Shown: positions 1,828-5,702 of the stretch, piece after piece | Layout of the letters: each line of letters starts with the position of its first letter | How positions within the stretch are numbered: position 1 is the first letter of the stretch | DNA from: Escherichia coli | Lineage (GTDB): Bacteria; Pseudomonadota; Gammaproteobacteria; Enterobacterales; Enterobacteriaceae | Strand: one strand, 5' to 3' | Assembly: GCF_044324785.1 (NCBI RefSeq) | Contig: NZ_CP172127.1 | Length of the DNA: 64,000 bases | The notes under the pieces: model-generated | What the model was told of the DNA's origin: nothing | Databases searched by the model: none | The model's input: the letters and a program-made list of their open reading frames with translations, nothing else | Position numbers and translations under genes: made by a program

Positions 1828-4110
1828 CATCTGACGGTTTTTATTGAAGTTAATCAAACTACCCGCCTTGATAATCTCGCGTTCTTCAGCAGTCAGACTT
1901 TCCATATAGAGCGTAATCTCTGTTACCGGCGCATCTTCATGGATCACATAACCTTTAAACGTCGTACCCGGATTATCCAGCGCCGCTTTAATGCCAGGGA
2001 TGTAAATGTAATCCCCCACTTCAAACGCTGGTGCTTCCGCCATTTGCAGCGGTAACATCCCCCAGTTGATGACGTTAGAACGGTAGCGTTTAGTCGCGTA
2101 TTCCTCGGCAATATTCGCCAGACCGCCAATCACACGCTGGCAGCTCGCCGCCTGCTCACGCGCAGAACCATCGCCTGGTTTCACCGCATAGACCATGCTG
2201 CCAATTTCAGTTTGCAGCGGATCAATATGCTCCTGACCAGCAATCTGCTTAATGCGCGCAAACACCTCTGTCAGCTCACTGACATTCCCCGCCAGACGCT
2301 GATTTTCCAGCTCAGCAGTCGCTTTACTTCTGCCAACATAACCTGGATCGCGGCGTGACAGGGTAAACTCCGCCAGACCAATCGGATTTGAACGATAAGA
2401 AGATGTTTCACCGGAAGGAATCAGTTCGTCGGTGGTGGTCACTTCGTCGAGGATCTTCGAGCACACTTTGAGGACGATATTGTCAGTCAGCGCACCCAAT
2501 TCCGGCCAGTCTTTAATGTTCGGTCCGTAAATCAGCGGTTGCTGGGTCGCCCCTTTCACAAAGCCCTGATAAACACGGTTTTTATACGGCGTTACATCGA
2601 AGGCGTACTCCGGCACGTTGTCCCAGCAATCCAGCTCGCTGGCAGAGGTTAAATAGCCACCGTTTGCCGCAGTCGCAGCGATGGAACGAGCGTCCATCAA
2701 CGCCACTGCTGACATCTGCCCATTGGCTGGCTTAGAGCCTTCGCGGTTCGGGAAGTTACGCGTGGTGTGGCGAATACTCAAACCGTTGTTGATTGGCGTA
2801 TCGCCCGCGCCGAAGCATGGGCCGCAGAACGCGGTTCTGATGATTGCGCCTGCGCCAATCAAATCTGCTACCACGCCTTTTTTGGCTAAATCCATAAACA
2901 CCGGCTGTGATGACGGGTAAACCGCCAGCGAGAAGGTGTCATTGCCACAGGATTGACCGCGCAGTGCATTCGCCGCCGCGATGACGTTTTCGTAGTTACC
3001 GCCAGAACAGCCCGCGATAATCCCCTGCTGCACTTTCAGGCGACCATTTTCCACTTTATCCAGCAGCGAGAGTTTGGCTTTACCGTGCGCCACGCGTTCG
3101 GACTCAATTTCAATCTCACGCAGAATGTCGGTCAGGTTCTGGTTCAGCGTGTCGATTTCATACACGTTGCTCGGGTGGAACGGCAGCGCAATCATTGGTT
3201 TGATGGCGCTTAAATCAACGCTGATGCAGCCATCGTAGTACGCCATCGGTTGAGGGTTAAGCTGGCAGTAATCCTGGCCGCGACCGTGCAGCGCCAGCCA
3301 GTTATGGACTTCTTCATCGGTTTGCCAGATAGAACTTAAACAGGTCGTTTCAGTGGTCATAACGTCAACGCTGTTACGGAAATCGGTAGAGAGCGCAGCA
3401 ACACCGGGACCTACGAATTCCATCACTTTGTTTTTGACGTAGCCGTTTTTGAACACGGCACCGATGATAGCCAGCGCCACATCCTGTGGCCCCACATACG
3501 GCGCAGGTTTTCCGGTCAGATGCACCGCAACAACTCCCGGATAGTCGATATCCCAGGTGTCATTAAGCAGCTGTTTTACCAACTCACCGCCACCCTCACC
3601 GACTGCCATTGTCCCTAATGCACCGTAACGGGTGTGGCTGTCTGACCCGAGGATCATTTTGCCCCCGCCTGCCATCATCTCACGCATATATTGATGGATG
3701 ACCGCAATATGCGGAGGCACAAAAATACCGCCATAACGCTGAGCTGCCGATAAACCAAAAACATGGTCATCACCGTTAATGGTGCCGCCGACGGCGCAGA
3801 GTGAGTTATGGCAGTTGGTCAGCACATACGGCAGCGGGAAACGTTCCATACCGGACGCTTTAGCGGTCTGTACAATACCAACAAAGGTAATATCGTGAGA
3901 GGCTAATGAATCAAACTTAATTTTAAGTTTATCCATATTTCCGGACGTATTATGAGAAGAGAGAATAGACCAGGCAATAGTGCCTTTTTTTGCTTCTTCT
4001 TTTTTAATTTCGCCGGTGAAATGTTCTTCGGCAATTATTTCGTTATTACTGGCGAGAAACACGCCTTTTTCAGATAACTTGATCATCAAATGCTCCAGAT
4101 ATCTGCGCAC
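1825..4110 (-). CDS. ybhJ: Aconitase-family hydratase
   Basis: 761 aa ORF; aconitase-like sequence; position in ybhHIJ cluster. Confidence 0.8.
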
Positions 4111-4152
4111 CGTGAAGTGCGCAGAAAGATAATAAATGGATATACTCTAAAT

Positions 4153-4268
4153 AATTCGAGTTGCAGGAAGGCGACAAGCGAGTGAATCCCCAGGAGCTTA
4201 CATAAGTAAGTGACTGGGGTGAGCGAACGCAGACGCAGCACATGCAACTTGAAGTATGACGAGTATAT
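4153..4268. repeat. ERIC/IRU enterobacterial repetitive intergenic consensus element
   Basis: Contains gtgaatccccaggagcttacat and aagtaagtgactggggtgagcg, the two halves of the ERIC inverted repeat (the classical ERIC primer sites). Confidence 0.8.
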
Positions 4269-5702
4269 TTACAGCATGTTCCAGCCGATCAGCATATTCC
4301 ACCACCACACTCCGAGGGTGATATGCACCAGGAAGGTTAATATCGTCAGTACCGCACCGACCAACCACCAGGATTTAATATCGTTGTAACCCACGCCAAA
4401 GATGACCGGACCTGCCGCGCCGCCATAGTGAGTAACCATGCCGCCATAGGAGTTGGAGAACAACAGTGCCAGCGCGGTTAACATTAACGGTGCGCCGGAG
4501 ACGTTCGCCAGCATGGCAAATACCGGTAACATGGCAACGATATAGGCACTACCGGAAGCGAAGAAATAACGCACGATAATGCTGAGGAAAATAATAACGA
4601 AGAAAGCAACGTTACCGTGACCATCAAATGCCAGGTTATTTTTAAAGACTTCAGCTAACCATTCGAAGAATTTCACTTTCGATAATAAGGAGCTTAAGCC
4701 GATAATACCGCCGTACCAGATTAAGGTATTCCAGCCGCCTTTATTTTTAACCACGTCTTCCCAGGTAACGATACCCAGCAGCAGCATAGTCGCCATAACA
4801 ACGATTGCCACGGTGGATTCATCAACCCCCAGTGACTTACTGAAAATCCAGCCCAGTAGCGCCAGCACAAAGACACCGAGCAGCATTTTTTCGCGGATTT
4901 TCATCGGTCCCAGTTCGGCAAGGCCCGCTTTGGCGATGGTTTTGTTATCCACCTTCTTAATTTCTGGCGGATACATGGTGTAAATCACCAGCGGGGTGAC
5001 CAGCAGCATAATGATACCCGGCAATCCAGCGGCCAGCGCCCATCCACCCCAGCTAATTTGCAGGTGCAGAATGTCGTTGATCATTTTCAGCGCCAGAATG
5101 TTCCCCGCCATTGCGGTAAAGAACATATAGCTGGTGGTTTTGGTGACCATGTAAATGGACATCATCAGGTAATGTCCGACACGACGCGGACTTTTTTCCG
5201 GTTCGGACCCCAAAGCCACCGCCACACTGTTGATGATCGGTAACACAATGCCGCCCGCACGCGCGGTGTTAGACGGTGTTGCCGGAGCCAGTACCAGATC
5301 GAGGAATACCGTAACGTAACCCAGACCCAGCGTGGTGTTACCGATTTTACCAATCAGCAGATAGGCTATACGTTTGCCTAAGCCGGTGGTCACAAATGCG
5401 GCGCTTAAGGTGAACGCCGAGAACACCAGCCAGGTGGTACCTGAAGAGTAACCGCTTAATACGGCGGTGGTCTTAAACGCACCGTCGGATAAGTTACCGA
5501 CCACCACCATTGAGGCAGCAACGGCAATTAACAGTACGACAGGTTCCGGGAAAGGCTTGATAACCAGCCCCACAATGGCCGCCAGGTAAATACCAAAAAG
5601 CACCCACGCCAGTTCGCTTAATCCTGCCGGAGCTGGCATAAAGCCAATAATACATGGGATCGCTAATATCAGAATTAGCTTCCATAACGATTTTTTATTC
5701 AT
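4269..5702 (-). CDS. ybhI: DASS-family anion/tricarboxylate transporter
   Basis: 477 aa highly hydrophobic ORF; synteny. Confidence 0.8.
   Translation of the reverse strand: MNKKSLWKLILILAIPCIIGFMPAPAGLSELAWVLFGIYLAAIVGLVIKPFPEPVVLLIAVAASMVVVGNLSDGAFKTTAVLSGYSSGTTWLVFSAFTLSAAFVTTGLGKRIAYLLIGKIGNTTLGLGYVTVFLDLVLAPATPSNTARAGGIVLPIINSVAVALGSEPEKSPRRVGHYLMMSIYMVTKTTSYMFFTAMAGNILALKMINDILHLQISWGGWALAAGLPGIIMLLVTPLVIYTMYPPEIKKVDNKTIAKAGLAELGPMKIREKMLLGVFVLALLGWIFSKSLGVDESTVAIVVMATMLLLGIVTWEDVVKNKGGWNTLIWYGGIIGLSSLLSKVKFFEWLAEVFKNNLAFDGHGNVAFFVIIFLSIIVRYFFASGSAYIVAMLPVFAMLANVSGAPLMLTALALLFSNSYGGMVTHYGGAAGPVIFGVGYNDIKSWWLVGAVLTILTFLVHITLGVWWWNMLIGWNML

Follow-up and report, generated by a model that had tools for sequence, protein, structure and literature searches.

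The spacer between ybhI and ybhJ of E. coli carries a full-length ERIC element, which was inserted at a TA dinucleotide just past the stop codon of ybhI, with duplication of the TA, within the genus Escherichia, and which is now essentially fixed in E. coli. ERIC is a tiny non-autonomous mobile element. The copy described here occupies positions 4141-4267 of the window, that is, the whole stretch of 64,000 nucleotides of E. coli DNA that was analysed, and its identification as ERIC is as good as certain. The explanation that we consider best overall, and very probably the right one, is that of a MITE insertion at the ybhI stop codon that became fixed, coupled with the proposal of an RNase E-type effect on the mRNA; the size of our belief in that effect taken by itself is given with the evidence for it.

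Identification and boundaries of the element

The element and the features around it are as follows (positions are those of the window).

4141..4267, minus strand (the strand transcribed with ybhI and ybhJ): full-length 127-bp ERIC (IRU / RU-1) element, by ungapped alignment
4182..4225: conserved central core of 44 nt with both ERIC-PCR primer sites, exact match
4182-4203: ERIC1R primer site, exact match
4204-4225: ERIC2 primer site, exact match
4141..4165: ybhJ-proximal terminal inverted repeat, the 3' arm in the mRNA, AU-rich (..CUCGAAUUAUUUAGAGUAUA), inverted repeat I1
4243..4267: ybhI-proximal terminal inverted repeat, the 5' arm in the mRNA, beginning 1 nt past the ybhI stop codon
4141..4142: TA dinucleotide, one copy of the target-site duplication, from the empty-site alleles with a single TA
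4266..4267: TA dinucleotide, second copy of the target-site duplication, from the empty-site alleles
4269..4271, minus strand: ybhI stop codon TAA, from the ORF 4269-5702 and the RefSeq annotation
4102..4125, minus strand: native spacer hairpin outside ERIC, 9-bp perfect stem (UCUGCGCAC-N6-GUGCGCAGA), inverted repeat I5
4084..4096, minus strand: ybhJ ribosome-binding region, GGAG at 4096-4093 and ATG at 4086-4084, from the RefSeq start and the sequence as read

The element is exactly 127 bp in length and its ends read TATAC...GTATA. On the transcribed (minus) strand, from 4267 down to 4141, its sequence is 5'-TATACTCGTCATACTTCAAG...TTTAGAGTATA-3', and the opening of this reading is also given as TATACTCGTCATAC...TTTAGAGTATA. 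The same orientation is printed in Table 1a of PMC2759123, where it is described as the reverse complement of the RU-1 sequence, and both reference sequences used in our alignments were taken from that table. The results showed that 113 of the 127 nucleotides (89%) are identical to the 127-nt E. coli consensus and 119 of the 127 (94%) to the Salmonella reference copy SeRU-1, with no gaps in either alignment; the sub-group of the ybhI-ybhJ copy is thus nearer to SeRU-1 than to the E. coli consensus. The earlier note on this DNA had named weak similarity to the ERIC consensus as the observation that would speak against its reading; the similarity found upon alignment is high (113/127), and the ERIC identity stands. 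Its statement that the ybhI-ybhJ spacer holds a full-length ERIC/IRU with both halves of the inverted repeat was borne out by the length of 127 bp, the arms and the ungapped reference alignments. It had placed the element at 4153-4268; the element is indeed there, but its true span is 4141-4267, as 12 bp of the left terminal repeat had been missed and one flanking base had been added.

The 44-nt core occurs once in the window, with 0 mismatches, while 0 occurrences are expected (100 shuffles), and the sequences of the ERIC1R and ERIC2 primers were confirmed in PMC3696847. The arms of the terminal inverted repeat (4140-4165 and 4243-4268) are 26 nt in length and 81% complementary, and an inner inverted repeat (4188-4201 and 4206-4219) lies within the element. 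All the sequence characteristics of ERIC / IRU were found in this copy, namely a length of about 127 bp, agreement with the consensus and the core, terminal repeats, TA ends and multi-copy occurrence.

The ERIC / IRU / RU-1 elements described from E. coli and Salmonella (Sharples & Lloyd 1990; Hulton et al. 1991; Wilson & Sharp 2006; all cited through PMC2229807 and PMC2759123) share with the present copy the length, sequence, core, terminal repeats, TA duplication, intergenic position and multi-copy status; the present copy differs from them in being fixed and not strain-variable. We concluded that the element is of a kind already known, a textbook ERIC in which nothing essential is different from the described family. 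It is of little importance beyond annotation, the family having been known since 1990-91 and the copy being present in K-12.

The E. coli genomes contain a median of 5 and a maximum of 11 ERIC places each that are detectable by megablast, and the literature, including PMC10969869, gives 19-30 ERIC copies in K-12. A scan of viral contigs for ERIC copies yielded 5 loci only, and a scan of metagenome contigs was used instead, in which 47 distinct ERIC sites were found. Rfam has no ERIC family. The Rfam family RF02818 (V_AS5), an ERIC-like Vibrio RNA, matches positions 4140-4263 on the plus strand with 46.9 bits (E = 1e-8), as against a gathering threshold of 96 bits, and isrH, a Salmonella Hfq-binding RNA, scored 17.5 bits as against a threshold of 45 bits; membership in both families was rejected. 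Both have sequence and structure in common with ERIC, V_AS5 from end to end (model positions 1-129), and the two Rfam families appear to contain ERIC-derived sequence.

Gene context and spacer

The two neighbours are named in the RefSeq annotation as ybhI (anion permease) and ybhJ (hydratase), as seen in E. coli records that match the window. Both are on the minus strand, and upstream are ybhH and the divergent LysR regulator gene ybhD. The annotation confirmed the intergenic location of the ERIC. The ybhI ORF extends over 4269-5702, and the single base 4268 parts its TAA (4271-4269) from the end of the ERIC at 4267. Since ybhJ is annotated to start with the ATG at 4086, the length of the spacer (4087-4268) is 182 bp and not 158 bp as had been claimed; the latter figure agrees with an upstream in-frame GTG at 4110, which opens the longest ORF. 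As judged from the empty-site alleles, the spacer without ERIC is about 57 nt, and the insertion widens the gap from about 57 to 182 nt.

Reckoned from the positions of the annotated genes, the K-12 copy is located at about 803,322-803,448 of NC_000913.3. The ERIC is unannotated as a feature in that record, and the curated MG1655 annotation has no gene in the spacer. The K-12 strains (MG1655, L054; and L001) carry a T-to-A change at window position 4264, in the ybhI-proximal terminal repeat, which reads GAGAATA and not GAGTATA; one basal pair of the hairpin is lost by this change.

The native hairpin at 4102-4125 stops 5 nt upstream of the ybhJ Shine-Dalgarno sequence and is not followed by a U-run. 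It is present in alleles with and without ERIC, including the empty-site alleles (the position was seen in L003-L021 and L044). A hairpin with a different stem sequence is found at the same position in most Citrobacter loci and in Edwardsiella, none being evident in C. sedlakii (L050), and compensatory changes were observed in 6 of the 9 pairs of the native hairpin. Beyond its TAA, the ybhI frame meets no further stop codon in the ERIC or the remaining spacer until a TGA (4088-4086), which overlaps the ybhJ ATG as TGATG, and a second reading frame is likewise open across the ERIC on the transcribed strand. The open ybhI frame is probably a by-product of the intrinsic open frames of ERIC and of chance, and the idea of a small ORF or of translational coupling by way of this frame, having been judged in the same manner, was rejected.

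Distribution of the ERIC at the ybhI-ybhJ site

The junction of the ybhI stop codon with the ERIC was detected in at least 5306 of the 5426 complete E. coli genomes (about 98%), and the whole spacer, at a coverage of at least 80%, in 5331 of them. The unique left flank was also found in 5331 of the 5426 genomes; 79 genomes gave no match to it at all and 16 gave a partial match only. The earlier note had regarded ERIC copies as polymorphic between strains. This does not apply to the present copy, given the frequency of the junction and the occurrence of a precise empty site in one genome only, and we concluded that the ERIC at ybhI-ybhJ is fixed, not polymorphic, in E. coli. ERIC-PCR bands primed from this copy would be monomorphic in the species.

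Among the 16 genomes with a partial left flank is L002 (NZ_AP027829.1), in which an IS1 (4049-4818) has taken the place of the ERIC together with the adjoining 3' end of ybhI and start of ybhJ. The other partial left flanks possibly result from events of a similar kind.

For the wider distribution, species-representative genomes were scanned with YbhI and the fetched loci were then analysed by BLAST. An ERIC at the identical site and in the identical orientation was found in the E. coli E69 lineage, E. whittamii and E. albertii. By the same YbhI scan and BLAST, no ERIC was found in seven Citrobacter loci that keep ybhI and ybhJ adjacent, nor in Edwardsiella, Intestinirhabdus and Klebsiella. 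In Klebsiella grimontii, Klebsiella michiganensis and Klebsiella oxytoca (L013, L014 and L016; 5435-6950), the gap between ybhI and ybhJ is widened by about 1.5 kb of non-ERIC sequence, which is probably an extra gene, and in Intestinirhabdus (L011, 5435-5631) the spacer is a GC-rich non-ERIC sequence of about 197 bp.

Empty-site alleles and the mode of insertion

A synthetic empty-site query of 50 nt, composed of 24 nt of the left flank, TA and 24 nt of the right flank, was searched against the 5426 complete E. coli genomes, and exactly one of them matched, that of the guinea fowl strain GF4-3. This strain has an intact ybhH-ybhI-ybhJ locus, and its spacer has a single TA and aligns to that of the window with a clean gap of 125 bp. 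The same empty TA site was found in another Escherichia lineage (L005). The filled allele reads TAAA-TA[..]TA-TCC and the empty alleles (GF4-3, which is L003, and L005) read TAAATATCC, a difference of 125 bp. A clean 125-bp gap with a single TA is the trace of a MITE-type insertion with TA duplication, and we therefore concluded that the element arrived in this way; TA duplication upon MITE-type insertion has been reported for ERIC (PMC3184786, PMC2229807). A further Escherichia lineage (L006) is also without ERIC, but has 10 extra nt right past the ybhI stop codon.

The genes of GF4-3 are unremarkable for E. coli, with about 98% identity to the window, and its spacer differs from the L005 spacer at 1 position in 57 nt. 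The likeness of the two spacers suggests either recombination over a short patch or the retention of an old allele. The precise empty allele of GF4-3 is a ready-made natural control for the effect of an E. coli ERIC on its flanking genes.

Folding of the element as RNA

The ability of the element to form a hairpin, which had been claimed, was confirmed by RNA folding. The transcribed strand folds with -45 kcal/mol (z = -6.3) and the other strand with -57.4 kcal/mol (z = -9.7). A family alignment was made of 37 distinct full-length ERIC copies, ungapped, in which 98% of cells pair. Compensatory double changes were found in 10 of the 26 pairs, as compared with 2.5 +/- 1.0 in shuffles and 0-4 in slid controls, and the base pairs of the outer arms covary across the 37 copies. 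In each of the 37 copies the more stable fold is that of the opposite strand, not of the strand transcribed at ybhI-ybhJ (mean -53.6 vs -42.9 kcal/mol), and thus the ybhI-ybhJ mRNA carries the weaker, pyrimidine-rich version of the hairpin. When a terminating ribosome was modelled at the ybhI stop codon, the basal helix melted and the unpaired probability of the AU-rich 3' arm increased from 0.28 to 0.49.

Sequence conservation

There are 0 differences in 127 sites between the window ERIC and that of E. albertii (L007, 5436-5562; also L004, 5436-5562), whereas 8.9% of the sites of ybhI and ybhJ differ between the two (21-28% at third codon positions) and 3 of the 55 sites of the remaining spacer. 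At the rate of the flanks, the probability of 0/127 is about 7e-6. The same was seen at five orthologous ERIC sites on metagenome contigs, where the most divergent pairs differ at 0.3% of the element as against 6.4% of the 250-nt flanks (Fisher P about 1e-13). Near-identical ERIC copies (at most 3 mismatches) are present at at least 8 unrelated loci. A divergence of ERIC far below that of its flanks restates the old puzzle of ERIC conservation, for which selection, gene conversion and hairpin-templated repair are each conceivable causes.

The only difference between the E. whittamii copy (L020, about 5500-5512) and that of the window is a block of three bases, in which TGA replaces CTC. Through this change the central palindrome, imperfect in the window copy, becomes perfect (CCCCAGTCACTTAC-TTAT-GTAAGTGACTGGGG); it looks as though one arm had served as template for the other, a hint of templated repair.

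Proposed effect on the mRNA and alternative explanations

A consensus scan of 3800-4600 predicted no promoter-like site, on either strand, and no terminator-like site in the spacer, and the promoter and intrinsic-terminator readings were dropped. Because no promoter or terminator is predicted and the spacer without ERIC is only about 57 nt, the co-transcription of ybhI and ybhJ is plausible from the sequence. A search for transcript data on the ybhI-ybhJ junction found none, and the SMRT-Cappable-seq supplements contain no mention of ybhH, ybhI or ybhJ. A study of the YbhD regulator names ybhH and ybhI as targets; ybhJ is not among them.

In Yersinia, as set out in sections of PMC2229807, PMC3184786 and PMC10969869, the upstream mRNA is destabilised in an ERIC-dependent and orientation-dependent manner via an RNase E site in the 3' terminal repeat, and the same sections, relating De Gregorio et al. 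2005, state that in Yersinia enterocolitica the ERICs at the 3' ends of genes lower the upstream transcript by unmasking the RNase E site. The ybhI-ybhJ copy is of the same family as the regulatory ERIC of Yersinia, and also abuts an upstream stop codon (1 nt away) between genes on the same strand. In the ybhI-ybhJ mRNA the AU-rich arm is on the 3' side, in keeping with the RNase E site that PMC10969869 places in the 3' TIR of the Yersinia ERICs. The effect on mRNA has been demonstrated in Yersinia only, and the present copy is likened to those by its geometry; the regulatory ERICs of Yersinia are those in the B orientation, and the assignment of the present copy to the Yersinia A/B classes is our own and tentative.

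On this analogy, the ERIC would have no coding or promoter function of its own, and would most likely be transcribed within the ybhI-ybhJ (probably ybhHIJ) mRNA in the less strongly folding, pyrimidine-rich orientation. It would form a long imperfect hairpin in the mRNA from 1 nt after the ybhI stop codon. A ribosome terminating at this stop codon would melt the basal helix, as may be supposed from the Yersinia enterocolitica ERICs beside stop codons, and the melting would expose the AU-rich 3' arm and its flank (AAUUAUUUAGAGUAUAUCCAUUUAUUAUCUUU) to RNase E, so that the stability of the ybhI and ybhJ segments of the mRNA would then be uncoupled.

The orientation of ERIC beside genes was surveyed at the 47 metagenome sites, with ORFs of at least 100 codons serving as gene proxies. 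Within 5 nt of, or overlapping, the end of an upstream ORF, 9 copies were in the orientation seen here and 10 in the other, so that no orientation bias was found in this small sample with crude gene calls. The absent bias weakens the Yersinia analogy but does not exclude it. Because the analogy is weakened, by this result (9 vs 10) among others, we consider a measurable effect of the ERIC on the mRNA at ybhI-ybhJ a tentative proposition, holding about a third of our belief. That the element has stayed nearly unchanged across Escherichia because it now serves as a cis-acting RNA, co-opted to set the ratio of expression of the ybhI transporter to the YbhJ hydratase, we hold to be unlikely. If it were true, the rare empty alleles would be natural loss-of-regulation variants, and the extreme conservation of ERIC, long noted and unexplained, would gain a testable functional cause at a defined locus.

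About equally likely as an effect on the mRNA, and credible to a degree that stays somewhat short of even, is that the element is a neutral passenger, a dead MITE without effect on ybhI or ybhJ, the conservation of which is due to homogenisation (gene conversion or hairpin-templated repair) and not to selection. The near-identical copies (0-3 mismatches) at no fewer than 8 unrelated loci are in agreement with this, and the perfecting of the central palindrome by the CTC-to-TGA change of E. whittamii is what would be expected of templated repair within a hairpin. The lack of an orientation bias beside stop codons points the same way, as do the intact ybhHIJ genes without ERIC in GF4-3 and two Escherichia lineages. 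However, homogenisation within genomes does not alone explain 0/127 between species whose flanks diverge by 9%, and the same pattern of low divergence is shown by five sites; moreover, the compensatory changes in the arms keep the pairing, and the ERIC has been kept in about 98% of the E. coli genomes.

The element might also act at the level of transcription, either by a leaky terminator or pause hairpin or by offering an untranslated C-over-G region for Rho loading, with the consequence that ybhJ is expressed less than ybhI (polarity). A U-rich stretch (UCCAUUUAUUAUCUUU) follows the hairpin, the untranslated gap is widened from about 57 to 182 nt, C exceeds G on the transcribed strand (35 vs 24 in the ERIC and 48 vs 35 in the spacer), and the targets in the YbhD study are ybhH and ybhI without ybhJ. 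Nevertheless, no intrinsic terminator was called in the spacer by the consensus scan, the AU-rich base of the stem and the interrupted tail make a poor intrinsic terminator, and strong structure disfavours Rho loading; 3'-end data for the junction were looked for and none were found. We regard this explanation as improbable. Least probable, and in our view hardly to be expected, is that the element supplies something else, be it a ybhJ promoter, a small RNA or antisense RNA, or a small ORF (e.g. the open ybhI frame to TGATG). Two frames are indeed open across the ERIC on the transcribed strand, that of ybhI reaching the TGA at 4088-4086, ORF fusions derived from ERIC have been described (PMC2759123), and V_AS5 and isrH of Rfam give partial matches. 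But the spacer has no predicted promoter-like site on either strand, the Rfam scores are far under gathering (46.9 vs 96; 17.5 vs 45), open frames are intrinsic to ERIC in this orientation (PMC2759123), a run of 18 extra codons without a stop would arise by chance in about 40% of cases, and the curated annotation of MG1655 places no gene in the spacer.

Comparison with other small repeated elements

The Correia/NEMIS elements of Neisseria and other bacterial MITEs (RUP, RPE) are likewise small and non-autonomous, with terminal inverted repeats and TA duplication, and MITEs of the Correia type are co-transcribed with neighbour genes, their hairpins being processed by RNases. Correia elements differ from ERIC in that their sequence is unrelated and in that they are cut by RNase III and may carry IHF sites and promoters, none of which were seen at the ybhI-ybhJ copy. 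The REP/BIME (PU) repeats of E. coli are intergenic, transcribed and palindromic, and can stabilise the upstream mRNA. REP units measure about 35-40 bp and have a GC-rich sequence that is unrelated to that of ERIC, and no REP-like sequence was found at the ybhI-ybhJ spacer element.

Rearranged ERIC copies

On one metagenome contig (L108, 9536-9662), the 3' end of ybhI is to the left of the ERIC and the right flank comes from another ERIC site (that of L174, L135 and L162); this junction is due either to misassembly at the repeat or to true recombination between ERICs. Some ERIC copies (L155, 300-575; L172, L077, L115 and L101) are split by 1-2 insertions of about 70-80 bp, and these are at fixed internal points, after about position 40 and about position 83.
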